The notes beneath the pieces were generated by a model. The model made no database searches, was not told where the DNA came from, and saw only the letters and a program-made list of their open reading frames with translations. A DNA stretch of 35,074 nucleotides from Pseudomonadota bacterium (GTDB lineage: Bacteria > Pseudomonadota > Gammaproteobacteria > Steroidobacterales > Woeseiaceae), in the NCBI GenBank assembly GCA_038533035.1, contig JBCAZN010000001.1, positions 1 through 35,074 on the forward strand. The letters run 5' to 3'. The position numbers were made by a program, and so were the translations under genes. Below are positions 4,730-33,270 of the stretch, in pieces. Position 1 is the stretch's first letter. Each line of letters begins with the position of its first letter.

Positions 4730-4759
4730 AGAGTTATTCTTGTCGCCGGGCGCCCAATG

Positions 4760-5938
4760 TTAGCCCAGCAGGCCCTCGCGACGGTAGAGGCGCGCGCATA
4801 CCCAGGTCAGGAGCGCACCGATTGCGAGGGTGCTGACCACGGAAATGGCGACATGCGTGGGGTTCAGCGGTTCGTTCTTGACCATATCGACCAGGATCAG
4901 GTGCTGGCTGAGACTGGGTATAAACATGAATTCAAGCCGCGGGCGCAAAGTCAGGATGCTCACGATCAGGATCGGCAGCGTGGGTGCGATAAGTACCACG
5001 CTGAGCCAGGTCTGCGCCTCCTTGTAACTCTTCGTGAACGAAGCCACGAGCGTCATCAGCGATGCGCCGAGAACGATAAACGGGACCAGCAACAGGAATG
5101 CCGCCGCGACTACCGTCAACGAGAAGTTTGGCGTCATACCGAGCTGTTCAAGCGGCATGAATTTAAGCACCACATAAAACGACAACAGGCTCAGCAGCAG
5201 CGAGAACGACATGAACACGCAGGTCGCTGCAATCTTGCCGAGAATAAGCTGGCCGCGCGTAACCGGCAGCGACAGCAGTGGCTCGAGTGAACCACGCTCA
5301 CGCTCGCCGGCCGTTGTATCGATCGCGAGATACATGCCGCCCATGAGCAGTGCAAAGATAAAGAAGTAACTCATCATGCCGAGCAGCATGGCCGAACGAC
5401 CGCTGGGTGTTGAGACATCGATATCGTCGACATTGAGCGGCCGCAGCAGCATCGGATTAACGCCGCGCGCCGACAATCGGCCCGAGGCAATTTCCTGGTT
5501 GTAGGCATACAGCGCGCGCCGGGCACGCCGGGCATCGCGCTCGCCGGTCGTGTTCGCCTGGTCCGAGTACACGGCGACCCTCGCAGGAATCATGTCCGCA
5601 AGCTGTTCTCCGAAAGTTTCGGGAATAAACAACACCACGTCGTGCACGCCGGTTTTCACGGCGTCTGCGGCGGCGGCGGCGTCCTCGGGGCCTTCTACAA
5701 TGTCGATATTGCGGCTTTCGAGGTAACGCACCAGATTGGGCGCATGCTCGGCCCCGATTACGGGCAGCTCCATGGGCTGCTCGGCACTTTCGATGCTGCG
5801 TTCGATCGACAGGTTAATGACGAAAGCGAACAGTACAGGGCCGAAGATCGGACCAAGGATCAGCGCAGACGCGAGTGTGCGGCGGTCACGCAGATTGTCG
5901 ACGATTTCTTTTAAAAAGACGGTGAAAAAGGTTCGCAT
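4760..5938 (-). CDS. ABC-2 type transporter permease (NatB-like)
   Basis: 392 aa. N-terminus MRTFFTVFLKEIVDNLRDRRTL followed by a TM segment, a large extracytoplasmic loop, then 5 C-terminal TM segments, which is NatB/ABC-2 topology. The ATG overlaps the upstream ATPase stop by 1 nt (TAATG). Confidence 0.8.
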   Translation of the reverse strand: MRTFFTVFLKEIVDNLRDRRTLASALILGPIFGPVLFAFVINLSIERSIESAEQPMELPVIGAEHAPNLVRYLESRNIDIVEGPEDAAAAADAVKTGVHDVVLFIPETFGEQLADMIPARVAVYSDQANTTGERDARRARRALYAYNQEIASGRLSARGVNPMLLRPLNVDDIDVSTPSGRSAMLLGMMSYFFIFALLMGGMYLAIDTTAGERERGSLEPLLSLPVTRGQLILGKIAATCVFMSFSLLLSLLSFYVVLKFMPLEQLGMTPNFSLTVVAAAFLLLVPFIVLGASLMTLVASFTKSYKEAQTWLSVVLIAPTLPILIVSILTLRPRLEFMFIPSLSQHLILVDMVKNEPLNPTHVAISVVSTLAIGALLTWVCARLYRREGLLG

Positions 5939-6675
5939 TACTCGTCTCCCACCGTCGGCACCATGCCAATCGCGGCAACGAACGCATCTTCGAGATCATC
6001 GCACCCCGTGCGCTCGCGAATGCCGTCCGCGGAATCGTCGATCGCGACCTGGCCGTTCGCGATGATGCAAATGTCGTCGCAAAGCGCGGCAACCTCCTGC
6101 ATGACATGGCTCGAGAACAAGACGCAGCGGCCGTCGTCGCGCAGCTTCAGGATCAGGTTGCGCAGACTGCGCGTCGCCATGACGTCGAGTCCGTTCGTGG
6201 GTTCGTCAAGGATGACGTTCTGCGGGTTGTGAACGAGTGCGCGCGCGAGCGCCACCTTGGTACGCTGCCCCTGCGAGAAGCCTTTCGTGCGGCGGTCGAC
6301 GAAATCCTCGATTTCGAGCAGTTTTACGATGTCGTTGATGCGATCGCCGATCGTGCCGTTTTCCATGCCGCAAAGTCGCGCGTAGTACTCAATGTTTTCG
6401 CGCGCGGTGAGGTGCGGATACAGGCCGGCGCCATGCGGCAGTGCGCCGATGCGACTGCGCGCGCCGAGACTGTCGGTAACGACATCTGCGCCGTCGATGG
6501 TGGCGTTGCCGCCGTCCGGACGCAGCACCGTGTAGAGAATGCGCAGCGTGGTCGACTTGCCCGCGCCGTTTGGACCAAGCAGCCCGGTAATCTTGCCGTC
6601 CGGCGCGTCGAAGCTGACACCGCGCACGGCGTGCACCTTGCCGAACGACTTGTGGATTTGGTCAACCTTGATCAT
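5938..6675 (-). CDS. ABC transporter ATP-binding protein (NatA-like, ABC-2 subfamily)
   Basis: Walker A GPNGAGKST, signature FSQGQRTKVALARAL, Walker B VILDEPTNGLD. I place the start at MIKVDQIHK (ATG 6675), which forms an ATGA overlap with the upstream hydrolase stop (6672-6675). The track ORF extends to 6732. Confidence 0.9.
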   Translation of the reverse strand: MIKVDQIHKSFGKVHAVRGVSFDAPDGKITGLLGPNGAGKSTTLRILYTVLRPDGGNATIDGADVVTDSLGARSRIGALPHGAGLYPHLTARENIEYYARLCGMENGTIGDRINDIVKLLEIEDFVDRRTKGFSQGQRTKVALARALVHNPQNVILDEPTNGLDVMATRSLRNLILKLRDDGRCVLFSSHVMQEVAALCDDICIIANGQVAIDDSADGIRERTGCDDLEDAFVAAIGMVPTVGDE

Positions 6676-8123
6676 GGCGCCGGCCCCGAAAAGTCCACGA
6701 AGAACGGCATGACGAAACTGCGCTCCATGCAATCGGTGTCCAGTGATTGTGGATCGGCGGTCTCGATAAAGTCTGCAACGATCTCCGGCATACAGCCGAC
6801 GGCAATCTGGCCGTGCCCCTGGTCCTTGCCGATCAGGTGCCGCGCGTTGTCCATGTCGACCATCGCGAGGTTCGCCCAGGACGGTGGCGTGATGGGATCG
6901 ACGTCGCCTGATAGCAGCAGCACCGGCAGGTCTGTTGCGAGCGGTTCTTTGAAGCCGTCGTCGATCGGGCCGGCCGGCCAGATTGAGCAGATCGCCTCGA
7001 GCGCATCGAGCTGCAGTGGTCCCATGTAACTGGCGGCCAGCGCGTCGTAGTCGATGGTTTCAGGATCGAAGAACGGTACATCCTCGCTGCACATGACGCT
7101 GTTGTGCATGCCCAGCGACAGCGCGTCGGTCAAAGAGATCATCGTCATGAGGTATTGCGAAGCGAGCGGCACGTAATGGCCTTCACCGGCTTCGTGGATG
7201 AGCAGCGGCATCAGCGCAATTGACCTCGGGCTGTAGGCCAGCAATCGGATGGCGACGGCAAACTCGTTCTGCCCAAAGGCGAAAGCCTCCGGCCGTCCCG
7301 TGCTTGGATGTGGCGCCACGACATCGACGGGTGCGTCGGTCAGGCGCGCCAGCACATCGTCGAATGTCTGGTCGATGTTCGGGAAGTGCTCGCTGCAAGC
7401 GGTATCGTCAAGGCAGCGCCCCAGAATGTTGTCGACCGCCGCCTGGCTTTCGGTCGCAATTTCCGGGCCCAGCGATTTTTGCGGCGGAACGACGACGTCG
7501 ATCGTAATCGTGCGAGTGTGCTGCGGATACTGGCGCGCATAGTGTTGCGCGACACGCGAGCCGTACGACACGCCGTACAGATTCAAAGCGGGGTAGCCGA
7601 GCGCTTCGCGCACGGCATCGAGATCCTGTACGGCGACCGACGTCGTAAAAAAGCGCGCATCGTGTGGTAGCTCATCGAGACATTGCTGCGTGTACTTGAT
7701 CGTGAGCTCCGTCGAGTACTGTCCTTCGACAAGATCGTCGTCAAACTCACAGTCCATCGTCGCCGAATCGCCCGTGCCGCGCTGGTCGACCAGCAGAATG
7801 TCGCGATTGCGGCGCACGGGCTCGAACGCCGACGAATAGGCGGTGTAGAACTGCACGGAGCCCTGTCCGGGGCCGCCCGCAATCGGCACGACAGGGTCGG
7901 TCTCCGGCGTCAGGTTGAGCGCGGGAACAACCGCAACACGCAGCTCGATGTCGCCTTCTACCTGGCCGCTCGGATCGAGCGGCCGCGTGAGCATCCCGCA
8001 GCGGGCTTTCATGCTTGGCATGCCCGAGCCGGCGCTGATGCGGCAATCGTCAAGCTCTAGGGTTTGTGCTGTGGCCGGCCCCACGAGGAGCAGTGCCAGC
8101 AGCGGCAATAGGGTGCGGATCAT
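6672..8123 (-). CDS. Secreted alpha/beta hydrolase, S33 (proline iminopeptidase / TAP tripeptidyl-aminopeptidase-like) family
   Basis: 483 aa with signal peptide MIRTLLPLLALLLVGPATA|Q. GGPGQ oxyanion region, DQRGTGDS, nucleophile elbow GVSYGS, and a C-terminal TAP-like region (LLLSGDVDPITP ... GHG). Confidence 0.8.
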   Translation of the reverse strand: MIRTLLPLLALLLVGPATAQTLELDDCRISAGSGMPSMKARCGMLTRPLDPSGQVEGDIELRVAVVPALNLTPETDPVVPIAGGPGQGSVQFYTAYSSAFEPVRRNRDILLVDQRGTGDSATMDCEFDDDLVEGQYSTELTIKYTQQCLDELPHDARFFTTSVAVQDLDAVREALGYPALNLYGVSYGSRVAQHYARQYPQHTRTITIDVVVPPQKSLGPEIATESQAAVDNILGRCLDDTACSEHFPNIDQTFDDVLARLTDAPVDVVAPHPSTGRPEAFAFGQNEFAVAIRLLAYSPRSIALMPLLIHEAGEGHYVPLASQYLMTMISLTDALSLGMHNSVMCSEDVPFFDPETIDYDALAASYMGPLQLDALEAICSIWPAGPIDDGFKEPLATDLPVLLLSGDVDPITPPSWANLAMVDMDNARHLIGKDQGHGQIAVGCMPEIVADFIETADPQSLDTDCMERSFVMPFFVDFSGPAP

Positions 8124-8259
8124 GAAAGGCCCTGCAGCAATCGAGCGGCTATCTTGGACAAGCGCTTATAATTAGTAAAGTTTCACTGGCGCGAAGGCCT
8201 TGCCAAGTCTAGAATTCGCGCCCCTTGCTGGTTACTTTTTGATCAATGTTCCTTATCCG

Positions 8260-10113
8260 ATGACGCAGCGTTTCGATGTAATTGTGATAGGCGGCGGACA
8301 CGCCGGGACGGAGGCAGCCCTTGCCGCCGCACGGGCGGGTGCGCACACGCTGCTCGTGACGCAAAAAATCGTGGCGCTCGGACAGATGAGCTGCAACCCG
8401 GCGATCGGCGGCATTGGCAAAGGCCACCTGACGCGTGAAATTGATGCGCTGGGCGGCGCGATGGCCCGCGCAATCGACCGCGCGGGCATCCAGTTCCGGA
8501 CCTTGAATGCGTCGAAAGGCCCGGCTGTTCGCGCGACCCGGGCGCAAGCCGACCGCGAGCTTTATCGTGCGGCGATCCAGGACATCGTGACCGGGCAGGC
8601 CGGACTTGAACTTCATGAGGCTATGGTTGACGACCTCATCGTCGACGGCGACCGCGTGACCGGCGTCGTAACGAACCAGGGTGAGTCACTCGTCGCCGCG
8701 ACTGTCGTGCTGACGGTTGGTACCTTTTTAAGCGGCCGCATTCTCGTCGGCAGCAGTGAACAGGCAGGGGGTCGTATCGGCGATGCACCGTCGAACAACC
8801 TCGCCGCGCGGCTTCGCGAAATGCCGTTCAATGTCGCGCGCCTGAAAACCGGTACGCCGCCACGACTTGATGGCGCGACGTTGAACTACGAACTCATGCA
8901 GGAGCAGCCGGGCGACGTTCCGGTGCCTGTGTTTTCGTTTCTCGGCCAGCGCAACGAACACCCGCAGCAGATTTCGTGCTGGATTACGCGCACCACCGAG
9001 GAAACGCACGACATCATTCGTGCGTCGCTTGATCAGTCGCCGATGTATACGGGCCAGATCGAGGGCGTCGGCCCACGCTACTGTCCGTCGATTGAAGACA
9101 AAATTGTGCGCTTCGCCGACAAGGACTCGCACCAGATTTTCGTCGAGCCCGAAGGGCTGACAACCGACGTCGTTTACCCGAACGGTATTTCAACGAGCTT
9201 GCCTGCGGACGTGCAGGAGCGCTTCGTGCATTCGATCACGGGCTTCGAAAAAGCCGTGATCACGCAGCCCGGTTATGCAATTGAATACGATTACTTCGAC
9301 CCGCGGGACCTGAAACCGACGCTCGAGACGAAGCACGTTGAAGGACTCTACTTTGCGGGCCAGATCAACGGCACGACAGGCTACGAAGAAGCGGCCGCAC
9401 AAGGTCTGCTTGCCGGCCTGAACGCCGCGCGCCGTGCCAGAGAGCGTGAGGAGTGGTACCCGGAACGCCACGAGGCGTACATGGGTGTGCTGATCGACGA
9501 CTTGATAACACGCGGTGTGTCGGAGCCGTATCGCATGTTCACGAGCCGGGCGGAATATCGCCTGCTGCTGCGCGAGGACAATGCCGATCTGCGCCTGACA
9601 CCAAAAGGCTATGAGCTTGGCCTCGTCGATGAATATCGCTGGTCGACGTTCACGACGAAGCGCGGCGCGGTTGCGAACGAACAGGAGCGACTCGCAGGCA
9701 TTAACGTCAAGGACTACCAGGCGAGAGCCGTCGCCCTCTTGAAGCGCCCGGGCATCGGTTACAGCGATGTCACGTTGTTGCCGGAAGTGGGAGTGGGCGA
9801 GGCACTGCTGGAGCTGCCCGAAGAACAGCGCGAGCAGGTTGAACTACAGGTCGAAGTCCAGGCCAAGTACGCGGGCTACATCGATCGCCAGGAGCGCGAG
9901 ATCGCAAAACAGGCGAAACAGGCGTCGTTGCGACTGCCGGCCGATATCGACTACGAGACCGTCGACGGATTGTCGAACGAGGCGCGCCAGAAACTGAGTG
10001 CCGCGCGGCCGGACACGCTCGGGCAGGCTTCTCGACTCGAGGGTATGACGCCCTCGGCCGTCAGCCTGCTGCTGATTCACATCAAGAAACGCCAGCTCAA
10101 AAAAACCGCCTGA
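8260..10113 (+). CDS. mnmG: tRNA uridine-5-carboxymethylaminomethyl(34) synthesis enzyme MnmG (GidA)
   Basis: [30 protein letters not shown]-binding N-terminus, [14 protein letters not shown], and full-length colinearity with E. coli/Pseudomonas GidA. Start chosen at ATG 8260; the track ORF starts at 8200. Confidence 0.95.
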
Positions 10114-18188: not shown

Positions 18189-19178
18189 ATGAGCACGTTT
18201 CGCGCCTACCGAATCGACCAGCAGGAAGGCGAGGTCGTAGCCGGATTTCAGGAGCTGACGCTCGACGACCTGACAGAAGGTAATACCGTCGTTCGCGTCA
18301 GCCATTCCACGATCAACTACAAAGATGCGCTGGCGGCGACCGGCAACGGCGCCATCCTGCGTCGCTTTCCACTCAACGGCGGGATCGATCTCGCGGGCGT
18401 CGTGGAGTCATCGGACGACCCGGAGTTTCCTGCGGGAACCGCCGTGCTCGTCAACGGGTGCGGTCTTAGCGAAACCGTCGACGGCGGCTACTCGCAATAC
18501 GCCCGTGTCGACAGTGGTTCGCTCGTGGCAATTCCGGACGGCATGACGGCGCATGAAGTCATGCAGATCGGCACGGCCGGCTACACGGCAGCACTTGCGA
18601 TTCATCGCATGGAGCAAAACGGCCAGTCACCGGATCTCGGGCCGGTGGTTGTCACAGGCGCGACCGGCGGCGTTGGCAGCATTGCGATCGACATGCTCGA
18701 TAGTCGCGGTTACGAGGCGGTCGCGGTAACGGGTAAGGCGACCGAAGAGGGCTATCTCAAAAGCATTGGTGCGCAGCGCATCCTGCTGCGCGACCAGATA
18801 GAGCTCGGCAAGCGCCCGCTGGAGAAAATCATGTGGGCGGGCGCTATCGACAACCTCGGTGGCGACTACCTGACCTGGTTAACGCGCACGGTCGGCTACG
18901 GCGGCAACATTGCGAGCGTTGGCCTGGCTTCGAGCTTCAAGCTCAACACCACGGTCATGCCGTTTATCCTGCGCGCCGTGTGCCTGCTCGGCATTAACTC
19001 TGTCGACACGCCGCGCGACCTGCGGCGCACCGTCTGGCAGCGCATCGGCGGCGATCTTAAGCCGCGTTACCTGGACACGATTGGACACAACACGATCGCG
19101 TTCGATGAGCTCCCCGGCGCGTTCCAGGGCTTTATCGACGGCAGCATAACGGGCCGCACGATTGTCGAGATCGACTAG
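18189..19178 (+). CDS. acuI: YhdH/AcuI-family NADPH-dependent quinone/acrylyl-CoA reductase (MDR superfamily)
   Basis: Colinear with E. coli YhdH as I recall it (SSLNYKDALA.TG.G.I.R.FP..PGID.AG.V..S.DP.F.AG). Nucleotide-binding VVVTGATGGVGS. ATG 18189 is preceded in frame by TTG 18186. Confidence 0.85.
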   Translation: MSTFRAYRIDQQEGEVVAGFQELTLDDLTEGNTVVRVSHSTINYKDALAATGNGAILRRFPLNGGIDLAGVVESSDDPEFPAGTAVLVNGCGLSETVDGGYSQYARVDSGSLVAIPDGMTAHEVMQIGTAGYTAALAIHRMEQNGQSPDLGPVVVTGATGGVGSIAIDMLDSRGYEAVAVTGKATEEGYLKSIGAQRILLRDQIELGKRPLEKIMWAGAIDNLGGDYLTWLTRTVGYGGNIASVGLASSFKLNTTVMPFILRAVCLLGINSVDTPRDLRRTVWQRIGGDLKPRYLDTIGHNTIAFDELPGAFQGFIDGSITGRTIVEID

Positions 19179-19579
19179 CTGAACGCAGCGGGCATGAAGA
19201 TGGCGGCCAGGCCGAGCAGGACCACTGCCCACAGAAGCAGGCCGAGCAGTAACCAGACGTAGTTCGCGGCGGTCAGCTTGCGATTCGAGGCGCCGTTCGG
19301 GTCGCTGCAGGCGGCATTGATCGCTTTCTGGGCAGGCACCAGCAACGCGGGCAACACGAACCACAGCGACGCGCTGAACAGAATCACCCAGCCGGAGATC
19401 AGCGCTTCGGGCATGACCCGATCGGCCACCCGGTTGATGATCGTGAGCAACACAAACAGCGTCGCGATCAGGTTTGGCGACCAGCTGTAGTCCGGATCCT
19501 TATCGCGCAGGCGCGTATCGACGTCCGTGAACAGCGAATGCGTGAAGAAGATGTAGAAGATGCCGCGAGAGCTTAGCAT
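19175..19579 (-). CDS. Hypothetical small integral membrane protein (about 3 TM segments)
   Basis: 134-aa ORF with strong GC3 bias like neighbouring genes and three hydrophobic segments. No start codon other than ATG 19579 exists upstream before an in-frame TAA, and no SD is visible. Family not recognised. Confidence 0.5.
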   Translation of the reverse strand: MLSSRGIFYIFFTHSLFTDVDTRLRDKDPDYSWSPNLIATLFVLLTIINRVADRVMPEALISGWVILFSASLWFVLPALLVPAQKAINAACSDPNGASNRKLTAANYVWLLLGLLLWAVVLLGLAAIFMPAAFS

Positions 19580-19599
19580 CGAAACCGGCGCAAAACGCT

Positions 19600-19628
19600 T
19601 TGTCGATTGGCGGCGACGCCTTTACTAT
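19600..19628 (+). promoter_or_regulatory. Candidate sigma70 promoter for the RDD-MoxR operon
   Basis: TTGTCG (19600-19605), 17-nt spacer, TACTAT (19623-19628). Each hexamer matches consensus at 4/6. It lies in the divergent intergenic region and inside the longest RDD ORF, which favours the downstream TTG start. Confidence 0.25.
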
Positions 19629-19667
19629 GGGCCATGGCTCGGGGCGCCCGGCGCAAGAATTGATCGA

Positions 19668-20351
19668 TTGCTTTTAGACACCACCTATAACATCGATACA
19701 CCGGAAGGCGTCGAGCTGCGTTTGCCGGTCGCTGGCATCGGCTCGCGCGCACTGGCCTGGCTGATCGACGCATTCATCAAATTTATCGCCCTGATTTTCG
19801 GTTCGATCGTGCTCGCCTTCCTCGGCAACTTGGGCCAGGGGCTGACGCTGATCGGAATCTTCCTGATTCTCTGGTTTTACAACGTCCTGTTCGAGGTGTT
19901 CGCACACGGCGCGACGCCGGGCAAAAAGGTGATCGGTCTGCGCGTCATGAATGCCAACGGCACACCGGTTGGCTGGTCGGGGTCGTTGATCCGCAACCTG
20001 CTGCGCTTCGTCGACACGCTGCCGGGCTGTTACCTGTTTGGCTGCGTGGCCGTCATGTTGAGTCGCAATTTCCAGCGCCTCGGCGATCTCGCTGCGGGCA
20101 CGGTTGTCGTCTATGCGGAACGGGACACCGGCCGAGCCTCGCTTGCCGGTGTCGAGCCTAGCCCGGTCAAGGTACCGCTGACTCTTGATGAACAGCAGGC
20201 CGTCGTCAGTTTCGGCGAACGTGCGCCGCGCTTGAACCGCGATCGCGCCGAGGAGCTTGCAGACCTGATGTCGCCGGTATTCGGCGACGTGAATGCCGAG
20301 GAGCTGCGCAGCCATGCTGCGTGGTTAGCCGGTGGCGAGGTGAGCCGGTGA
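19668..20351 (+). CDS. RDD family membrane protein
   Basis: TPEGVELRLPVAGIGSRALAWLIDAFIKF (R...D of the RDD motif), 3 TM segments, GATPGKKVIGLRV, and LGDLAAGTVVV (final D). TTG 19668 gives an N-terminus MLLDTTYNIDTPEGVEL like other RDD proteins. The alternative ATG 19560 would overlap the divergent gene's start by 20 nt. Confidence 0.8.
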   Translation: MLLDTTYNIDTPEGVELRLPVAGIGSRALAWLIDAFIKFIALIFGSIVLAFLGNLGQGLTLIGIFLILWFYNVLFEVFAHGATPGKKVIGLRVMNANGTPVGWSGSLIRNLLRFVDTLPGCYLFGCVAVMLSRNFQRLGDLAAGTVVVYAERDTGRASLAGVEPSPVKVPLTLDEQQAVVSFGERAPRLNRDRAEELADLMSPVFGDVNAEELRSHAAWLAGGEVSR

Positions 20352-21334
20352 AACAAGAAGCCTTCGAGGCCCGCTACAAGGACGACTGGCAACAGTTCGA
20401 GGAATGGATCGCGATCATGACGGCCGGACGCCGCGCCGTCGCAAACTCCGGCGAACAGGACAACATTGCCAAAGGTTTTCCCGCCGCGTATCGGCAGGTT
20501 TGCCATCACCTGGCGCTGGCGCGCGCACGGCGCTACAGCGTCGGCCTGCAGCAGCGACTCAATCGGCTCGCACTGGATGGACACCAGTATCTGTACCGTG
20601 CCCGGACACCGATTTTCAGTTCCATGCTGCGCTTCGTCGCATTCGGCTTTCCGCAGGCGTTCCGCAAGCAGTGGCGATTCATGCTCGCGTCGGCCTTGCT
20701 GTTCTGCGTGCCGATAGCGGGCATGTCGGTGGCGGTTGCGCTGGACCCGGACCTTATTTACTCACTGATCAGCCCCGGCCAGGTTGCCAGCATGGAAGAG
20801 ATGTACGACCCGGCCAACGACGTGCTTGGACGCGAACGCGAGTCCGACACCGACGCACTGATGTTCGGTTTCTACATTGCCAACAACATCGGCATTGGCT
20901 TTCGAACCTATGCCGGCGGGCTCGTATTCGGTATCGGCAGCATGTTTTTCCTGTCGTTTAACGGGCTGTACTTCGGCGCGGTCGCAACACACCTGACGAT
21001 GGCCGGTTTTTCCTCAACCTTCTGGCCGTTTGTGTCAGGTCACAGTGCGTTCGAGCTGACCGCGATCGTGATCTTCGGCGGTGCCGGGCTGATGCTTGGC
21101 ATGGCGGCCGTAGCACCGGGGCGCAAGTCACGCTGGCACGCGATTCGGGACCGGGCGATGGAAAGCATGCCGCTCGTCTACGGCGGTACCGCGATGCTGG
21201 TTGCGGCAGCATTTGTAGAAGCGTTCTGGTCGTCAACGACCTGGCCACCCATCAACCTCAAGATCGTGGTTGGCATCTCGCTCTGGCTGATAACGATCAT
21301 TTACTTCAGCCTGATGGGTCGCCGTGAATCTTGA
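20348..21334 (+). CDS. SpoIIM-like (stage II sporulation protein M / DUF95 family) integral membrane protein
   Basis: N-terminal soluble helical region, then a polytopic core with family hallmarks (FYIANNIGIGFRTYAGGLVFGIGSMFFLSFNGLYFG; GHSAFELTAIVIFGGAGLMLG). GTG 20348 forms a GTGA overlap with the RDD stop. GTG 20321 is an alternative start. Confidence 0.8.
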   Translation: MKQEAFEARYKDDWQQFEEWIAIMTAGRRAVANSGEQDNIAKGFPAAYRQVCHHLALARARRYSVGLQQRLNRLALDGHQYLYRARTPIFSSMLRFVAFGFPQAFRKQWRFMLASALLFCVPIAGMSVAVALDPDLIYSLISPGQVASMEEMYDPANDVLGRERESDTDALMFGFYIANNIGIGFRTYAGGLVFGIGSMFFLSFNGLYFGAVATHLTMAGFSSTFWPFVSGHSAFELTAIVIFGGAGLMLGMAAVAPGRKSRWHAIRDRAMESMPLVYGGTAMLVAAAFVEAFWSSTTWPPINLKIVVGISLWLITIIYFSLMGRRES

Positions 21335-22838
21335 GTCGGTAACGGCCGAGCTACGGCCGCGCGGTGCGTGGGAAGCCGTCGACTTCGGGGCGCGCATGGT
21401 GCGTCGTGATGCAGGCGTGATCTACAAGGTCTGGTTCGCGACCACGCTGCCGTTCTTGCTGTTGGCCACACTCGGCATTATTTACCTGGATTCGCCCGGC
21501 TGGGTGCTGATCGGGTTCTGGTGGCTCGAGCCGGTGTTCGGCGCGCCAATTCTGTACATCATTTCACGGCGCCTGTTCGGTGAGCCGACCGACGTGCGTT
21601 CCGCCATTCGTGCGACGCCCGGCCTGGCGCGCCGCAACTGGATATTCCTGCTTTCGCCGCTGCGCTTTCACTTTGCCCGTTCGGTCGCGATGCCGCTAGT
21701 GCAGCTGGAGCAACTCAGCGGCGCACGTCGTCGTGCCCGCGCGAAAGTGCTCAACCAGGTCACGCTAAATCACGGCATTGGCGTAACCGCCGCATACCAG
21801 CATCTCGCGCTTGCGGTGTACTTCGGCATCATCCTGCTTGGCTTTGCATTCGTGCCGGAGGCCTACCAGGAGTCACTCGGGCTGAGCTGGTTCGACAACT
21901 TCAGGGACGATCAGGATGTTGCGTCCGCGGTGCTGAACCTCTACCTGTTTTATATCGCGCAGACCTTGTTGCACCCGTGGTTCGTCGGTGCGGGCTTCGG
22001 TCTCTATATCAATTGCCGCACGATGCTCGAAGCGTGGGATATCGAGGTGGCGTTCCGGCGCATGCTGCAGCGCCGCGCAAATCGTCTCGGCAGAGCGGCG
22101 TCGGCAGCCATGCTGGCGCTGACGGCCGCGATCGTGTTCGTTACCTTGCCGGGCGAGTCGAGCGCCGCCGAAGCGCGCATCGAGCCGTATTGGGACGAGG
22201 AATACATAGCGGACGCTGTCGACGCGGTTTACGAAGACGACTCGATGCAAACCACTGAGGTGCGCGAAGTCTGGCGTTCGCTCGACGATCAGGAGGAGGT
22301 TGTCGACGATGGCCCTGAGCTTGACGGTCTTGGTGAGTTTTTTCGCGACGTCGGCAAGGTGATTTCATTTATCGTCGAGTTCGGACTCTGGATCGTGATC
22401 GCGATGATTCTCATCGCGCTGGTTATGACGGCGGAACGGTGGCTGCCTTACTTGCGGATGGAGCCGCGCCTGCGAAAACAACGCGAGCGGGTGATCCTGT
22501 CAACCGGCGAAATCACAGCCGAAACGCTTCCCGACGACCTGCCTGGCAGCGTCATGGCGCTCTGGAAAGAGGGCAATGCGCGCGAGGCGCTCAGCCTGCT
22601 GTATCGCGGCAGTGTTTTCGGGGCCGTGCATCGCCACGGCGTGCGGTTGCCGAAAAGTGCGACCGAGGGCGACTGCGTTACCGCGGTCGACGAGCAGACG
22701 GCTGACACGCACGCCTCGTTCTTCTCACGCGTGGCCTACGCGTGGGTGTGGTGTGCATACGGTTCGACGTCGCCCGCCGAAGAGGCAATGCAGGCGATGT
22801 GCAGTGAATGGCCGGCACACTACGGGGCGGCCGAATGA
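21324..22838 (+). CDS. Polytopic membrane protein with a C-terminal DUF4129-like domain
   Basis: 504 aa. Several TM segments in the N-terminal half, an acidic linker (DDQEEVVDDGPELDGL), a further TM segment, then EALSLLYRGSVFGAVHRHGVRLPKSATEGDC, which resembles the DUF4129 signature. GTG start with an 11-nt overlap on the SpoIIM-like gene. Confidence 0.65.
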   Translation: MNLESVTAELRPRGAWEAVDFGARMVRRDAGVIYKVWFATTLPFLLLATLGIIYLDSPGWVLIGFWWLEPVFGAPILYIISRRLFGEPTDVRSAIRATPGLARRNWIFLLSPLRFHFARSVAMPLVQLEQLSGARRRARAKVLNQVTLNHGIGVTAAYQHLALAVYFGIILLGFAFVPEAYQESLGLSWFDNFRDDQDVASAVLNLYLFYIAQTLLHPWFVGAGFGLYINCRTMLEAWDIEVAFRRMLQRRANRLGRAASAAMLALTAAIVFVTLPGESSAAEARIEPYWDEEYIADAVDAVYEDDSMQTTEVREVWRSLDDQEEVVDDGPELDGLGEFFRDVGKVISFIVEFGLWIVIAMILIALVMTAERWLPYLRMEPRLRKQRERVILSTGEITAETLPDDLPGSVMALWKEGNAREALSLLYRGSVFGAVHRHGVRLPKSATEGDCVTAVDEQTADTHASFFSRVAYAWVWCAYGSTSPAEEAMQAMCSEWPAHYGAAE

Positions 22839-23971
22839 GGCCGATGACGATTACATTGCTCGTCATACTCGGCATCAGCCTGATGGCGGGCTGGTTTTTC
22901 GCGACTCACGAAAAGGTCGAAGAGGAGCAATGGGTCGGGTTGCGCGGCGAGGCCCGTATTAATGATTTCTACGCGGCTGAGCTGTTATTGCGTGAGCTCG
23001 GCTTCGAAGCCGAGTCGCGGCCGACGCTGACGCCGACAGAATGGCTGCCGAGCTCGACGGACACGATCATCCTGCGCCTGACGCCGTCGATCACGATCGG
23101 CGATGAACGCAGCGGTTTGCTGGACTGGGTCGGTGCCGGCGGGCACATCGTGTTCCTGCCGCCGCTCGAAGAGACCAACGACGTCGAGTCGTTTCTGGAA
23201 GAGTTTGCGCTCGACATCGCCTTTGTCGACGAGCCCGAAGACGATGAGTTTGATGAAGAGCCATCGTCCGACACCGGCAACCAGCACGACAACGAATACG
23301 CCATCGAGGCGATGTGGGATATACAGCAGATCAAGGCGATCGGTGAGCCCGACGATATCGAGGTCATTCGCCACCACGGTCGGATATTTGTTGCGCGGCG
23401 CCCCTACTACGACGGTTTTGTCACCCTGCTCGCCGACGGTGAACCATTCGAGAACCTGTCAATTGGCACCGGCGACAATGCGCGGCTGTTTGCCGATGTC
23501 GTCGTTGGCACGCTCGAGCCCGGCAAGGTGTGGATTACGTTTGAGACCAGCTTTGCACCGCTCTGGAAGATCATCTGGCTGGCAGCGCCCTTTGTCGTGG
23601 TTGCCATTGCGCTATTGCTGGTGCTGTGGATCTGGCACGCGATGCCGGCTTTCGGCCCGAAATCTGCCGGCGAGGCAGCGTCGCGCCGGTCAATTATCGA
23701 GCACATTCGCGCCAGCGGCATTTTCACCTGGCGCAAACACGGCGCGGGCCACCTGATGGAAAGCTCAACGCAGGCGCTGGTGCATGACGCCGACGCCAAG
23801 CATCCCGGGTTGTCGAAACGCTCGGCCGAAGAACAGGCGGCGGTTATCGCGCGCATTACGGGGATGCCCGCCCAGAAAGTAATGGATGCCCTGCACGGGC
23901 ACCCCGATCCGAAGCATCGGGAATTCACGCACAGCATGCAGAAACTGCAATCAATAAGGAAAGAGTTATGA
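22835..23971 (+). CDS. DUF4350-like bitopic membrane protein
   Basis: N-terminal TM segment (MTITLLVILGISLMAGWFF), a periplasmic domain with FYAAELLLRELGFEAES ... LLDWVGAGGHIVFLPP, a second TM segment (IIWLAAPFVVVAIALLLVLWIW) and a cytoplasmic tail. ATG 22835 forms an ATGA overlap with the upstream stop; the track ORF starts at 22808. Confidence 0.7.
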   Translation: MRPMTITLLVILGISLMAGWFFATHEKVEEEQWVGLRGEARINDFYAAELLLRELGFEAESRPTLTPTEWLPSSTDTIILRLTPSITIGDERSGLLDWVGAGGHIVFLPPLEETNDVESFLEEFALDIAFVDEPEDDEFDEEPSSDTGNQHDNEYAIEAMWDIQQIKAIGEPDDIEVIRHHGRIFVARRPYYDGFVTLLADGEPFENLSIGTGDNARLFADVVVGTLEPGKVWITFETSFAPLWKIIWLAAPFVVVAIALLLVLWIWHAMPAFGPKSAGEAASRRSIIEHIRASGIFTWRKHGAGHLMESSTQALVHDADAKHPGLSKRSAEEQAAVIARITGMPAQKVMDALHGHPDPKHREFTHSMQKLQSIRKEL

Positions 23972-24942
23972 CGGAAGCAACGGACCAGTTTGCCGCGTTG
24001 CACGGCAAGATCGCGGCGCTGCGCAAACAGATCGAGCGCGCCTTTGTCGGACAGGCGAAGGTCGTCGATGAGATCGTCATCGCACTGCTCGCCGGCGGCC
24101 ACGTTTTGCTCGAGGGCGTGCCGGGTCTCGGTAAAACGCTGCTCGTGAAAGCCATGTCGTCAGCGTTCGGCGGCAAGTTTTCGCGCATCCAGTTCACGCC
24201 GGACCTGATGCCGAGCGACGTCACCGGGCACGCGATCTACGACCCGAAGACCGAGTCGTTTCGTATTCGACGCGGACCGGTGTTTGCCAACCTGCTGCTT
24301 GCCGATGAGATTAACCGTGCGCCGGCGAAAACCCAGGCGGCACTGCTCGAGGTGATGCAGGAAAACCAGGTGACCATCGAGGGCAAGTCCTCACCGGTGA
24401 CCAAACCGTTCATGGCGGTCGCAACGCAGAACCCGGTGGAGCACGAAGGCACCTACCCGCTGCCCGAAGCGCAGCTCGACCGCTTTCTTCTCAAGGTGCT
24501 GATCGAGTACCCGGACCAGGCATCGGAAAGCCAGATCGTGTCGGCGGTTACGACCGGCCACGTAGGCGATTCACTGAATGTCGATGCGGTGCAAGCGGTC
24601 ATGAGCATCGAGGACGTCATCGCGGCGCAGTCGCTGGTTGCGGCAACCCGGGTCGATCCCTCGGTGATTGATTACGCGGTGCGGATTGCGAGAGAAACGC
24701 GCCAGGCATCGGGTATTCGCATGGGTGCCGGACCGCGTGGTTCGATCTCGCTGGTGCGCGCCGCGCGCGCGGCGGCGGTCGTCGCGAACCGTAATTTCGT
24801 AACGCCCGATGACATCAAGCAGGTGGCGGTGCCGGCGTTACGGCATCGCATCGCACTGGCGCCGGAGCTCGAGATCGAGGCGTATCGCCCGGACGATATC
24901 CTCGCTGACATTCTTGAGCATGTGGACGCGCCCAGGTCGTGA
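23968..24942 (+). CDS. MoxR-family AAA+ ATPase
   Basis: Walker A GVPGLGKT, Walker [25 protein letters not shown] sensor region, GPRGSI and LRHRI near the C-terminus. 324 aa. ATGA overlap with the upstream gene. Confidence 0.95.
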
Positions 24943-26246
24943 TACCCCGCCGCCCGCTCTTTGTTCTTACAGGCGTCCTCGCGGCGCTTGGCCTGCTGGT
25001 GGCAACAGGGCTTGTGCCTGCCACCTACTGGTGGGTAGCGGGCGGGCTGGTTGTTTTTGCAGCACTGGCCGATGTGGCGGCAAGTCGTATCGCGGTGGTG
25101 CCGGGCGTCGAGCGCAAAGCGCCAGGGTCGATGTCGCTGTCGAGCTGGTCGAGTATCGATCTCAATATTCGCAACGCGTCGAAACAGCAGCGGCTGCGTG
25201 CCCGCGTGTTCGATCATCATCCGGAAAGTTTTCAGGTCGACGGCCTGCCGCGTGAAATTGACGTACGCGCCGGGCATTTCGCCGACCTCAAATATCGAGT
25301 GCGACCGACGCGGCGTGGTGCTTACTCGTTCCCCGGTGTGCAACTCAGAATCGCGTCGCCGCTGGGCCTGTGGTGGCGACTGAAATTCGTCGCGGTTGCC
25401 GACGACGTGCGCGTATACCCAAACTTTTCGACCATTTCGAAGCTGTTGGCGTACGAGGTCGACAATCGCCTGCAGCTTGCGGGAGTACGCCTGAGTCGGC
25501 GTCGCGGCGAGGGCATCGAGTTTCACCAGTTGCGCGATTATCGTGAGGGCGACAGCCTGCGCGCGATCGATTGGAAAGCGACAGCGCGCATGTCGCGCCT
25601 GATTACGCGCGAGTACCAGGACGAGCGCGACCAGCAGGTGGTGTTCCTGCTCGACACCGGGCGACGCATGCTCGCCAAGGACGACGACCTCAGTCACTTC
25701 GACCATGCACTGAACGCCATGCTGCTGCTTAGCTATGTGGCGTTGCGACAGGGCGATGGTGCTGGCGTCATGACGGCAGGGCCGCAGCGATCCTGGCTGC
25801 CGCCGCGTAAAGGGCTCGATGCGATCAACGATATTCTGAATCACGTCTACGACATCGAGCCACAGCAGGTTGAGGTCGATTACCTGGCCGCCGCGACGGA
25901 ACTCGCCGTACGGCAACGGCGGCGCTCGTTGATTGTGATTCTGACCAACGTCCGCGAAGAGGACTCCGAGGACCTGCGCGCCGCAACCGGGCTACTGCGC
26001 CGTCGCCACCTTGTCATCCTCGCGAGCCTGCGCGAGTCCGCGCTCGATGAGATGCTTAAGAAGCCGGTGCATGGATTCGATGAGGCGCTGGCGTATGCGG
26101 CAACCAACCAGTACATGGAGGCGCGCCGCGAATCGCAAAACCTGCTGCGCGCTCGCGGTGTTTTCGTCGAGGACTGCCTCTGCCAGGACCTGCCGTCAGC
26201 CATAACCAGTCGTTATTTGGCGATCAAGCGCTCCGGCCTGCTGTAG
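24939..26246 (+). CDS. DUF58 family protein (vWA-like partner of MoxR), N-terminally membrane anchored
   Basis: GTGA overlap with the MoxR stop. Two N-terminal TM segments. DUF58 signature FHQLRDYREGDSLRAIDWKATARMSRLITREYQDE followed by a vWA-like beta-strand VVFLLDTGRRM. Confidence 0.9.
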   Translation: MIPRRPLFVLTGVLAALGLLVATGLVPATYWWVAGGLVVFAALADVAASRIAVVPGVERKAPGSMSLSSWSSIDLNIRNASKQQRLRARVFDHHPESFQVDGLPREIDVRAGHFADLKYRVRPTRRGAYSFPGVQLRIASPLGLWWRLKFVAVADDVRVYPNFSTISKLLAYEVDNRLQLAGVRLSRRRGEGIEFHQLRDYREGDSLRAIDWKATARMSRLITREYQDERDQQVVFLLDTGRRMLAKDDDLSHFDHALNAMLLLSYVALRQGDGAGVMTAGPQRSWLPPRKGLDAINDILNHVYDIEPQQVEVDYLAAATELAVRQRRRSLIVILTNVREEDSEDLRAATGLLRRRHLVILASLRESALDEMLKKPVHGFDEALAYAATNQYMEARRESQNLLRARGVFVEDCLCQDLPSAITSRYLAIKRSGLL

Positions 26247-26285
26247 ACCTCCTGTATTATTGGCTCCCCATTCGAGGGAGCCCTC

Positions 26286-28235: not shown

Positions 28236-28808
28236 GTGCGCAGTAACGAAGAAAAATTCGTCTGGCTGCTTGACGAGCTCGAACGCTGGAACCAGAAGGT
28301 CAACCTGACCGCCGTTCGCGACCGGCGCGAAATGGACATCCTGCACCTGGCCGACAGCCTGACGGCGCGGCCGTTGCTCGAAGGCACCCGGGTTCTCGAC
28401 ATCGGTACAGGGCCCGGGTTTCCGGGCCTGCCGCTGGCAATCGTCGAGCCGGAGCGTGAGTTCACGCTGGTCGACAGCAACAACAAGAAGATCCAGTTTG
28501 TGCAGCACGCGGCCGGATCGCTGGGACTTAACAATGTCTCGGCGGTGAAAGCGAGGGGTGAAGACTTTGCACCCGGGCGGCGCTTTGATACCGTGATCGC
28601 ACGAGCCCTGGCGTCACTGCCTAAGCTCATTGAGATTGCCGGGCATCACGTGGGAGAGGACGGGGTGTTCGTCGCGCTGAAAGGGCGCTACCCGGCAGAA
28701 GAACTAGAACAGATTGAAGCTCCGTGGAGTCATGACGTAACGGAACTGGACGTGCCGGGTCTCGAGGCGGGATCGCGGCACGCTGTGCTGTTGCGGCGAA
28801 ATCGGTAA
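28236..28808 (+). CDS. rsmG: 16S rRNA (guanine527-N7)-methyltransferase RsmG (GidB)
   Basis: RWNQKVNLTAVRDRREMDILHLADSL and SAM-binding LDIGTGPGFPGLPLAI. GTG start immediately after an in-frame TGA, so the maximum length is 190 aa. Confidence 0.9.
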   Translation: MRSNEEKFVWLLDELERWNQKVNLTAVRDRREMDILHLADSLTARPLLEGTRVLDIGTGPGFPGLPLAIVEPEREFTLVDSNNKKIQFVQHAAGSLGLNNVSAVKARGEDFAPGRRFDTVIARALASLPKLIEIAGHHVGEDGVFVALKGRYPAEELEQIEAPWSHDVTELDVPGLEAGSRHAVLLRRNR

Positions 28809-29593
28809 TGACGCGAATAATTGCAGTTGCAAACCAGAAGGGCGGGGTCGGCAAGACGACGACCTGCGTAAACCTTGCGGCCTCGCTGGCAGCGACGCAG
28901 CGGCGTGTGCTGCTTGTCGATATGGATCCGCAGGGCAACGCGACGATGGGCTGCGGCGTCAACAAGATGGATGTCGAATACTCCTCGTGCGATGTGTTGC
29001 TGGGCGATGCGACGGCCGCCGACACGATTGTCTCGCCGCCTGAGGGTGGCTTTGCGTTGCTGCCGGGTAACGAAGATCTGACACTCGCAGAAGTTCAGCT
29101 GCTGCAGGAAATCGGCCGCGAAATGAAACTCAAGAAGGCGCTGCAGCCGGTGGCCGGCCTGTACGACTTCATTCTCGTGGATTGTCCACCGTCGATAAAC
29201 ATGTTGACGGTGAACGCGCTGACCGCCGCCGACGGCGTACTGATTCCGATGCAGTGCGAGTATTACGCGCTCGAAGGCTTGAGTGCGCTATTGAATACGG
29301 TCGAGCAGGTCCGCGACTCGGTGAACCCGGATCTCGAACTGTTCGGCATTCTTAGAACGATGTTTGATCCGCGCATCAACCTCTCGAATGAGGTATCGAT
29401 GCAGCTGATCGAACATTTCGACCGCAAGGTTTTCCGCACGGTGGTGCCACGTAATATCCGGCTCGCCGAGGCGCCGAGCTTTGGCCGCCCCGTGCTGTTG
29501 CACGACCGGTCGTCGCGCGGTGCCATCGCGTACCTGGCACTTGCCGGCGAGATCCTGCGCCGCGAAGACGAAAAGGTTATGCAAGCAGTATGA
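28808..29593 (+). CDS. parA: Chromosome partitioning ATPase ParA (Soj)
   Basis: Deviant Walker A NQKGGVGKTTT, DMDPQGN, and DCPPS (Walker B region). TAATG 1-nt overlap with rsmG. Confidence 0.95.
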   Translation: MTRIIAVANQKGGVGKTTTCVNLAASLAATQRRVLLVDMDPQGNATMGCGVNKMDVEYSSCDVLLGDATAADTIVSPPEGGFALLPGNEDLTLAEVQLLQEIGREMKLKKALQPVAGLYDFILVDCPPSINMLTVNALTAADGVLIPMQCEYYALEGLSALLNTVEQVRDSVNPDLELFGILRTMFDPRINLSNEVSMQLIEHFDRKVFRTVVPRNIRLAEAPSFGRPVLLHDRSSRGAIAYLALAGEILRREDEKVMQAV

Positions 29594-30492
29594 GTCCCAA
29601 GAAACGACTAGGCCGCGGCCTTGATGCACTACTAAGTAAACCGGTAACGGAGAATGCCGTGGTCGCCGGCGATGACGCGGCGGCGCCGACGGCAGGAGAC
29701 GCGTTGCGCGAAATTCCGGTCGAGCTGTTGCAGCGCGGCCAATACCAGCCACGCGTGGACATGCGCCAGGACTCACTCGAGGAGCTGGCCGAGTCGATCA
29801 AGGTGCAGGGCGTGGTGCAGCCGATTGTTGCGCGCCCGATCGGCAAGAAAGGCGGCACGCAGCATTACGAAATTGTCGCCGGCGAACGTCGCTGGCGCGC
29901 TGCGCAGATGGCCGGCCTGGCCGAAATACCGGCGGTCATTCGTGATGTGCCCGATGAGGCTGCGATCGCGATGGCGCTTATCGAAAACATCCAGCGCGAG
30001 GACCTGAATCCGCTGGAAGAGTCGCGCGCGCTAAGCCGGCTGATCGAGGAGTTCGACCTGACGCACGCCGAGGCGGCCGAAGCAGTAGGACGGTCTCGTG
30101 CGTCGGTCAGCAACCTGCTGCGCCTGCAGGAGCTGTCGGACAAAGTGCAGCCCTTGCTTGAGGATCGACAGATCGAGATGGGCCACGCGCGCGCATTGCT
30201 CGGACTATCGGACCCGGGTAAGCAGCAAGCCGCCGCACGGGAAGTCGTCAAGAAGGGCCTGTCGGTCCGCGAAACCGAGCGACTGGTGCGCAGCATGCTG
30301 GGCGGCGGCAATGCAAAACCCGCAAAAAAGGCACCACAGCCCAATGCAGACATTCGTCGCCTGGAAATCGAAGTGTCGGAAAAACTCGGCGCGAAGGTAA
30401 AGGTCGATCACACGTCGAAAGGCACAGGCAAGCTCGTCATCAGCTACAACAGCCTCGACGAACTAGACGGCATCCTGAAACACATCAAATAA
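29590..30492 (+). CDS. parB: Chromosome partitioning protein ParB (Spo0J)
   Basis: ParB box motifs (QPRVDM...L.ELAESIK..GV.QPI; IVAGERRWRAAQMAGL), an HTH region (TH.E.A..VGRSRASVSN.LRL), and a C-terminal dimerisation segment. ATGA overlap with parA. Confidence 0.95.
   Translation: MSPKKRLGRGLDALLSKPVTENAVVAGDDAAAPTAGDALREIPVELLQRGQYQPRVDMRQDSLEELAESIKVQGVVQPIVARPIGKKGGTQHYEIVAGERRWRAAQMAGLAEIPAVIRDVPDEAAIAMALIENIQREDLNPLEESRALSRLIEEFDLTHAEAAEAVGRSRASVSNLLRLQELSDKVQPLLEDRQIEMGHARALLGLSDPGKQQAAAREVVKKGLSVRETERLVRSMLGGGNAKPAKKAPQPNADIRRLEIEVSEKLGAKVKVDHTSKGTGKLVISYNSLDELDGILKHIK

Positions 30493-32018: not shown

Positions 32019-33270
<1,252 letters not shown>

Follow-up and report, generated by a model that had tools for sequence, protein, structure and literature searches.

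MoxR-type AAA+ ATPases and their von Willebrand factor A (vWA) partners remodel specific partner complexes, as in RavA–ViaA, CbbQ–CbbO, NorQ–NorD and midasin. Few conserved clusters of unknown function are as widespread as the MoxR/DUF58 operons. Here we analyse one such cluster, six genes (genes 1–6) encoding an RDD-family protein, a SpoIIM-like protein, a polytopic membrane protein with a DUF4129-like C terminus, a DUF4350 protein, a MoxR ATPase and a DUF58 protein. The cluster lies on the forward strand of the first 35,074 nucleotides of contig JBCAZN010000001.1 (assembly GCA_038533035.1), hereafter the window, from an uncultured Woeseiaceae-like bacterium.

Among the closest described systems are the operons of TgpA and YebA, proteins that end in a transmembrane (TM) segment followed by DUF4129. 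In Pseudomonas aeruginosa, PA2875, PA2874 and tgpA are co-transcribed and tgpA is essential (Milani et al. 2012, PMC3507681). PA2875–PA2873 and Bacillus subtilis yeaC-yeaD-yebA, in which MoxR and DUF58 genes share a transcript with the gene for a polytopic membrane protein (PMC3507681, PMC3495828), resemble the window cluster to that extent. Zhang & Aravind (2012) predicted that MoxR, vWA and transglutaminase-like (YebA/TgpA) proteins form a membrane-proximal degradation system (PMC3495828). The TgpA operons differ in being without DUF4350, SpoIIM and RDD, whereas gene 3 of the window is without the transglutaminase-like core and DUF3488.

A predicted archaeal system comes close in another way, since its trio of a DUF4350 membrane-anchored protein (arCOG01314), a COG0714 MoxR ATPase and a vWA protein has counterparts in the window (PMC5898192). 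Makarova, Galperin & Koonin (2015) predicted that DUF4350, MoxR and vWA proteins form an archaeal secretion or membrane-remodelling complex, and also pointed to bacterial SpoIIM homologues that adjoin vWA and COG0714 ATPase genes (PMC5898192). The archaeal system differs by the addition of Ig-like and S-layer-type proteins; its SpoIIM-family genes mostly stand alone and RDD is unmentioned (PMC5898192). The Bat/Cmd operons (Bacteroides batI, Borrelia bb0170-0176 and Rhizobium RL3499-RL3502) also begin with MoxR and DUF58 and continue with envelope membrane proteins, and their mutants, as far as they are summarised in PMC5700661, show defects in aerotolerance or in envelope and morphology. The Bat/Cmd partners, however, are BatA/BatB vWA proteins and TPR/SH3 proteins, and neither the BatA/BatB vWA membrane proteins nor the BatC/BatE TPR proteins were present in the flanks and window open reading frames (ORFs) scanned. 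There was likewise no conserved client or cofactor gene in the window or the conserved flanks, which bears out an earlier note on this DNA that had found no BatA-E, client enzyme or metal-cofactor genes.

By its listed family names, the mycobacterial moxR2 region Rv3689-Rv3695 (MAB_0386c-0392c) matches the window cluster: Rv3695 is named RDD, Rv3694c SpoIIM, Rv3693 DUF58, Rv3692 MoxR, Rv3691 DUF4350 and Rv3689 a membrane protein, and all are down-regulated together in Mycobacterium chelonae (PMC8191103). The likeness is by product names only. Rv3694c and Rv3695 also occur in a co-immunoprecipitation list with the divisome-associated Rv0954 (PMC8093794). The mycobacterial and Nocardia loci differ from the window in how RDD and SpoIIM are ordered and oriented, and their gene 3 equivalent is apparently split or shorter.

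The searchable literature on the cluster, DUF4350, DUF4129 and Rv3689-Rv3695 yielded expression tables, the co-immunoprecipitation list and computational predictions, and no functional study, just as the earlier note had supposed when it knew of no experimental function. The AAA+-driven machine for assembly, remodelling or quality control that it proposed is reasonable and repeats earlier computational predictions. Its view of the combination as unusual is contradicted by the size of the gene 3 family (3194 representative clusters at a cut-off of E≤1e-3, 1533 at E≤1e-30, nearly all full-length at ~500 aa), by RefSeq annotation of the cluster and by the same family names in mycobacteria. The six-gene cluster is widespread, with thousands of relatives, was noticed earlier by comparative genomics and is annotated in reference genomes; it is not a new kind of system.

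Layout and conservation of the six-gene cluster

The six plus-strand ORFs occupy 19560–26246 of the window, and with the corrected start of gene 1 the cluster spans 19668–26246. Gene 1 (19668–20351) encodes the RDD-family membrane protein (227 aa), gene 2 (20348–21334) the SpoIIM-like protein (328 aa), gene 3 (21324–22838) the polytopic membrane protein (504 aa), gene 4 (22835–23971) the DUF4350 protein (378 aa), gene 5 (23968–24942) the soluble MoxR-type ATPase (324 aa) and gene 6 (24939–26246) the DUF58 protein (435 aa). Direct reading of the five junctions bears out the claim that all of them overlap. Genes 1 and 2 share GTGA (20348–20351), gene 3 starts at GTG 21324 ahead of the gene 2 stop at 21332–21334 to give an 11-nt overlap, genes 3 and 4 and genes 4 and 5 each share ATGA (22835–22838 and 23968–23971), and genes 5 and 6 share GTGA (24939–24942).

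The start previously given for gene 1, ATG 19560, is most likely not the true one. Homology among gene 1 orthologues begins at MLLDTT, where the orthologues have TTG or ATG exactly at this point, and two independent gene calls make the product 227 aa; because of this the start is most likely TTG 19668. A start at ATG 19560 would also carry gene 1 20 nt into the divergent gene at 19175–19579. The GTG 20348 start of gene 2 is backed by a database gene call of the same length (328 aa, 100% identity), on which both PF28475 and PF01944 are annotated. Residues 1–24 of the gene 3 product are conserved across phyla, which fixes its start at GTG 21324. Gene 4 starts ambiguously at ATG 22835 or at ATG 22808 (387 aa), overlapping gene 3 either way.

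To follow the cluster across genomes we retrieved 63 genomic loci with a gene 3 profile and used the six proteins of the window as queries against the ORFs in them. The order RDD-SpoIIM-gene 3-DUF4350-MoxR-DUF58, all on one strand, was found in essentially all loci where the flank was long enough. The loci cover at least five bacterial lineages: 37 come from Woeseiaceae-like Gammaproteobacteria, 6 from other Gammaproteobacteria, 3 from Dyella, 13 from Verrucomicrobiota (RDD detected in 7), 2 from Myxococcota and 1 each from a spirochaete and a deltaproteobacterial metagenome-assembled genome (MAG). The clades have no flanking genes in common, and the conserved order amid unshared flanks therefore marks the six genes as a discrete module. 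A tblastn search of plasmids with DUF58, independent of gene 3, recovered the identical order on the RefSeq-annotated plasmid pCadTS8_2 of Catenovulum adriaticum, a cultured bacterium (OLW01_RS18080-18055), where the NCBI annotation pipeline (PGAP) names the products RDD, stage II sporulation protein M, hypothetical (gene 3), DUF4350, MoxR and DUF58. The orthologous clusters of C. adriaticum, Dyella japonica and the Woeseiaceae MAG OZ245060.1 share the six families, their order and their strand with the window, whereas their flanks differ.

The overlaps follow a narrower distribution than the gene order. The same junctions overlap in the 37 Woeseiaceae-like loci (−4; −4 to −26; −4; −4; −4), with four junctions excepted over all 37, and because of this recurrence the five overlaps of the window are not due to chance. 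The pattern of five overlaps is nearly universal in this clade and partial in the others. Dyella has gaps of 11–97 nt at four of the five junctions, and only its SpoIIM–gene 3 junction always overlaps, as it does in 60 of 62 loci overall. Gene order is conserved across phyla, then, but the overlaps are not conserved in every clade. Obligate co-expression and fixed stoichiometry, which the earlier note had read from the overlaps, overstate what might be inferred from a feature that some clades lack.

Alphaproteobacterial plasmids carry a permuted operon, in which the order is DUF805, a small TM protein, a 424-aa protein, MoxR, DUF58, SpoIIM and RDD. It was read in two regions, from Rhizobium sp. 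N731 plasmid pRspN731e (locus L070, 1645–9016) and Paracoccus aminovorans plasmid p_II (locus L067, 4057–10713), in both of which one or two DUF805 genes precede the operon; DUF58 gave many further tblastn matches on plasmids of Rhizobium, Sinorhizobium/Ensifer and Paracoccus, and DUF4350 gave none against plasmids. Comparison by hhalign identifies the 424-aa protein as a DUF4350 homologue, though a divergent one (90.6%, E 1.3e-6); the small TM protein shows weak likeness to the DUF4129 end of gene 3 (12.5%, E 0.0023). As in the window, MoxR, DUF58, SpoIIM and RDD genes are co-directional with overlapping junctions and a DUF4350 homologue stands ahead of them. In contrast to the window, the order is cyclically permuted, there is no counterpart to the large N-terminal half of gene 3 and DUF805 lies upstream. 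Nocardia farcinica (locus L069) has a DUF4129-containing ORF, MoxR, DUF58, RDD on the minus strand and SpoIIM on the plus strand, with DUF4350 undetected among the ORFs scanned, and a haloarchaeal plasmid has a DUF4129 gene and a hypothetical gene followed by a DUF58 gene.

Two further arrangements were seen among the related loci. A second RDD-family gene (PF06271, ~1e-14), convergent with the cluster, directly follows DUF58 in 24 loci from Woeseiaceae-like bacteria, other Gammaproteobacteria and Dyella (for example, L007 14937–15533 and L008 14963–15526, both on the minus strand); the window has an S9 peptidase gene in its place. The actinobacterial plasmid pCff1 of Curtobacterium flaccumfaciens (locus L068, 1595–8925), another match of the DUF58 plasmid search, carries a six-gene copy of gammaproteobacterial type with many frameshifts, the DUF58 pieces of which are ~50% identical to that of the window, and which could reflect pseudogenes, assembly errors or horizontal transfer.

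The MoxR–DUF58 pair and the four membrane proteins

Pfam matches confirm the RDD, SpoIIM, DUF4350, AAA_3 and DUF58 assignments made in the earlier note; its DUF4129 label fails for the gene 3 protein itself and comes only by way of homologues. Once this label and the start of gene 1 are corrected, the annotation in that note is essentially right. Gene 5 is the only recognizable enzyme of the six, as had been noted from its motifs. Its product matches AAA_3 (PF07726) at 2.5e-63 over the full 131 positions and AAA_lid_2 (PF17863) at 1e-21, and aligns with the solved MoxR-like protein 2r44 over residues 11–320 (6.5e-74). It carries the Walker A sequence GVPGLGKT and the Walker B sequence LLLADEINR, and G50–T57 and D113–E114 within these motifs are conserved in at least 95% of 60 orthologues. 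With its catalytic residues conserved throughout, the ATPase should therefore be active, as judged from sequence. NCBIfam reports weak chelatase-like similarity within the AAA+ core. A match to bpMoxR (6.9e-13) is far weaker than that to AAA_3; PADLOC gave only two marginal P-loop matches (~1e-4) and there are no effector-like neighbours, and we rejected a MoxR–vWA conflict or other defence system as an identity for the cluster.

The vWA-type partner gene adjoins MoxR through its GTGA overlap, and the MoxR–DUF58 adjacency is found in all loci. The gene 6 product matches PF01882 (DUF58) at 8.9e-27, above the gathering score, and more weakly VWA_2 (1.3e-3). Two N-terminal TM helices precede a predicted cytoplasmic domain that contains the vWA fold. 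Its metal ion-dependent adhesion site (MIDAS) reads D239-T-G241-R-R243 (25653–25667), with TN replacing TDG, and so departs from the canonical DxSxS...T...D. D239, G241 and R243 are conserved in at least 95% of 58 orthologues, and the DUF58 copies of Rhizobium, Paracoccus, Nocardia and Catenovulum also have D-[ST]-G. The DUF58 protein is probably an adaptor with no canonical metal site.

Each of the membrane partners has a conserved region in addition to its generic Pfam domain. The gene 1 product matches PF06271 over the full model (1.3e-19) and has about three TM segments followed by a conserved, cluster-specific C-terminal tail of ~95 aa. R63, D70, D152 and D176 (numbered for the 263-aa ORF) do not vary among 12 diverse orthologues. 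The gene 2 product matches PF01944 (2.9e-29). Its first 107 residues (20348–20670) form a helical domain of ~105 aa that corresponds to DUF8413 (PF28475), a newer Pfam family missed by an older Pfam copy, and are followed by six TM helices (AlphaFold2 (AF2) model with a predicted local distance difference test score, pLDDT, of 86). N179, N180, H232, E236 and E291 are conserved in at least 95% of 62 orthologues and sit inside TM helices, as do conserved polar residues of the RDD protein. By sequence, gene 2 is without solved relatives. The conserved asparagine, histidine and glutamate residues raised the idea of an Rce1/CPBP-type intramembrane protease, which was dropped when no protease appeared among the Foldseek matches. 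No SpoIID or SpoIIP domains were found in the window ORFs scanned, and the host is a gammaproteobacterium with no sporulation context. For these reasons we regard gene 2 as a member of the SpoIIM family that is not the functional equivalent of the scaffold of the sporulation DMP complex.

Gene 3 has no Pfam or NCBIfam match of its own, even at E≤10. PF13559 (DUF4129) is nevertheless matched by 15 of its 28 full-length homologues (49–79% identical; best 7.4e-08), in which the C-terminal region is strongly conserved, and by transitivity the label holds for gene 3 indirectly. The protein has about six TM segments and consists of a conserved N-terminal membrane and cytoplasmic half with an AGFGLYIN.R...E.WD motif, an acidic low-confidence loop (~277–348), a last TM segment (~349–367) and the C-terminal DUF4129-like domain. 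Its AF2 model is all-helical (pLDDT 76.5). For structure prediction we used an alignment of database homologues, shallower than one of orthologues taken from the loci. Transglut_core (PF01841) and DUF3488 are absent from gene 3 and its 28 homologues and its model has no match in the PDB. It was accordingly set aside as a TgpA relative, leaving the C-terminal DUF4129 as the one link.

The gene 4 product matches PF14258 (DUF4350) at 1.2e-11 over model positions 10–177 of 181. It comprises an N-terminal signal or anchor, an acidic GldG-like domain (predicted periplasmic), a TM segment (~246–264) and a tail of ~110 aa (predicted cytoplasmic), and W98, G102, G103, G194, P275, R285 and W299 are conserved among orthologues. 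Gene 3, DUF4350 and DUF58 are, by sequence, without solved relatives. Genes 3 and 4 are fused in a 1088-aa verrucomicrobial ORF (locus L054, 9725–12988, plus strand) and in a 943-aa database protein (P0330), with DUF4129 directly ahead of the DUF4350 part in both, which argues for physical association of the two proteins. The fusion agrees with the predicted topology, which puts the C terminus of gene 3 on the inner side and has the following TM helix run outward.

A hydropathy scan agreed with the TM segments that had been noted in five of the six products: RDD, SpoIIM-like and gene 3 proteins are polytopic, DUF4350 is bitopic and DUF58 is anchored at its N terminus. Charge distribution suggests that the conserved soluble parts of gene 3 (the DUF4129 domain included), the DUF4350 tail, the SpoIIM-like N-terminal domain and most of DUF58 are cytoplasmic. 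The acidic DUF4350 domain and the acidic loop of gene 3 would then face the periplasm.

Readings of the cluster

We tentatively favour, with slightly more doubt than confidence, the reading that the six genes encode one inner-membrane assembly that is remodelled, assembled or gated by a MoxR/vWA engine. The MoxR ring would be cytoplasmic and tethered to the membrane by DUF58, through its anchor of two helices, with the vWA-type domain of DUF58 as adaptor. This engine could dock onto the cytoplasmic extensions of its partners, namely the DUF4129 domain of gene 3, the DUF4350 tail, the DUF8413 domain of the SpoIIM-like protein and possibly the RDD tail. DUF4350 would supply the sole globular periplasmic domain, with a non-catalytic GldG-like fold. 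Hydrolysis of ATP would remodel, assemble or gate the membrane module of RDD, SpoIIM-like, gene 3 and DUF4350 proteins, and the resulting function may be envelope transport, secretion or membrane remodelling.

Several observations support a single complex. Gene order and strand are conserved, the same six genes recur on the Catenovulum plasmid, and the permuted alphaproteobacterial variant keeps the families together. The gene 3–DUF4350 fusions, the overlapping junctions, the MoxR motifs and the extra regions of the membrane partners point the same way, and so does the lack of a conserved client enzyme in the flanks. Published predictions for related gene sets agree (PMC5898192, PMC3495828).

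Other findings weigh against such a complex. The loci were chosen through gene 3, and the co-occurrence counts are biased for that reason. RDD went undetected in 6 of the 13 verrucomicrobial loci and lies on the opposite strand in Nocardia. The degenerate MIDAS means that the usual metal-mediated grip on a client may not apply. Neither AF2 model resembled a transporter or channel: that of gene 2 had no Foldseek match in the PDB at E<0.1, and that of gene 3 had no significant fold match. The topology is based on a crude hydropathy and charge scan that leaves the side of the RDD tail ambiguous, and physical contacts among the six proteins are proposed only.

It is unlikely that two units of separate function merely travel together, a MoxR system of gene 3, DUF4350, MoxR and DUF58 and a membrane pair of RDD and SpoIIM-like proteins. 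The verrucomicrobial and Nocardia loci speak for such a division, as do the alphaproteobacterial variant, where the SpoIIM and RDD block sits at the other end of the operon with its internal order swapped, the extra convergent RDD gene of 24 loci, and the archaeal genomes, where DUF4350, MoxR and vWA genes occur together and SpoIIM-family (arCOG01994) genes mostly stand alone (PMC5898192). Both blocks are nonetheless adjacent in every arrangement found, across phyla and plasmids, the SpoIIM–gene 3 overlap is nearly invariant, and the N-terminal domain of the SpoIIM-like protein, predicted to be cytoplasmic, is specific to the cluster. Rather improbable is membrane-proximal degradation or quality control of the kind proposed for MoxR-vWA-TgpA/YebA, with vWA recruiting substrates, MoxR unfolding them, a peptidase acting in trans and gene 3 as a TgpA-like scaffold minus its transglutaminase-like peptidase domain. 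The MoxR–DUF58 pair does adjoin a polytopic protein ending in a TM segment and DUF4129, TgpA and YebA have several TM helices (PMC3507681, PMC3495828), and a secreted S9 peptidase gene lies 40 nt downstream in the window. The missing Transglut_core and DUF3488 domains count against it, however. Nor is any peptidase gene conserved across clades, S9 being adjacent only in close Woeseiaceae relatives, and the SpoIIM-like model is unlike intramembrane proteases.

Less probable again is the classical MoxR chaperone, in which the ATPase would insert metal or cofactor into, or mature, an unlinked client, with the membrane proteins as mere anchor or sensor. CoxD/CoxE, NorQ/NorD and the Mg-chelatase subunits BchI/BchD are precedents for MoxR-type cofactor insertion or maturation, and the weak chelatase-like similarity in the AAA+ core would fit. 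The MIDAS, on the other hand, is non-canonical and conserved as such, no conserved flank holds client or cofactor genes, and a mere anchor would hardly call for four dedicated membrane proteins that are conserved together. Least probable of all is that RDD and the SpoIIM-like protein together make up a transporter of ions or solutes under the control of the ATPase. An RDD-family protein of Halobacillus andaensis is reportedly a Na+(Li+,K+)/H+ antiporter, and the polar residues conserved within the TM helices of both proteins would suit such a role. No known transporter, however, was similar in fold at a meaningful Foldseek score, and we know of no precedent for AAA+ control of a secondary transporter.

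We also consider a more novel reading, although we doubt it more than we credit it: the cluster may encode a so far undescribed type of AAA+-powered inner-membrane machine, in which MoxR acts through a membrane-anchored vWA adaptor that lacks a metal site (arginine in place of the MIDAS serines) to drive or gate, mechanically, a module of four membrane proteins. If true, this would be a new envelope transport, secretion or remodelling system common to Proteobacteria, Verrucomicrobiota and Myxococcota, with variants in Actinobacteria and Archaea. Solving the cluster would give roles to four families (RDD, non-sporulation SpoIIM, DUF4129 and DUF4350) and would reveal the way in which such proteins are acted on by a MoxR/vWA engine in the membrane. 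As a further copy of the cluster, the window adds little alone. What is useful here is the map of conservation across phyla, the gene 3–DUF4350 fusions, the permuted operon of Alphaproteobacteria, the conserved departure of the MIDAS from the canonical motif and the list of cultured carriers, which names Catenovulum adriaticum TS8, Dyella japonica and Rhizobium sp. N731.

Surroundings of the cluster in the window

The stretch between gene 1 and the divergent 134-aa membrane-protein gene (19580–19667, as set by the corrected start of gene 1) is the presumed promoter region, in which a sigma-70 consensus scan found no site. Scans for promoter consensus (1 promoter-like site against 2.4 expected) and terminators (8 terminator-like sites against 9.5 expected) were uninformative, and a leader RNA or riboswitch was rejected when Rfam had no match anywhere in the window. 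The 134-aa protein (19175–19579, minus strand) has three TM segments and matches nothing in Pfam or PADLOC; homologues occupy the equivalent position in 9 Woeseiaceae-like loci and in no other clade. Downstream, the secreted S9 peptidase gene starts at ATG 26286, 40 nt from the DUF58 stop at 26246. A 7-bp hairpin, GGCTCCC-N7-GGGAGCC (26262–26282), lies between the two; its 3' arm covers a GGGAG Shine-Dalgarno-like sequence, and no T-run follows it. Neither the S9 peptidase gene nor the divergent 134-aa gene was accepted as a seventh member, each being adjacent in some Woeseiaceae-like loci only.

In Gammaproteobacteria mnmG and rsmG are usually neighbours near oriC. Here the cluster lies within ~18 kb that separates mnmG (8200–10113) from rsmG-parA-parB (28236–30492), with atpB nearby (32401–33270), and the same mnmG–rsmG layout is found in the Woeseiaceae MAG OZ245060.1 (locus L065). 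Genes in the interval are those for an Opp-like ABC transporter, a DUF945 protein, cytochrome c, a metallo-beta-lactamase-fold protein and an alcohol dehydrogenase, the six of the cluster and that for the S9 peptidase. Upstream of the cluster are the cytochrome c gene, the metallo-beta-lactamase-fold gene, the zinc alcohol dehydrogenase-like gene and the divergent 134-aa gene. Farther away, the minus strand at 1668–8123 encodes a tandem pair of M16 (insulinase-like) peptidases together with an ABC-2 permease, an ABC ATPase and a TAP-like alpha/beta hydrolase; with its M16 and S9 genes, the window is rich in genes for secreted peptidases.

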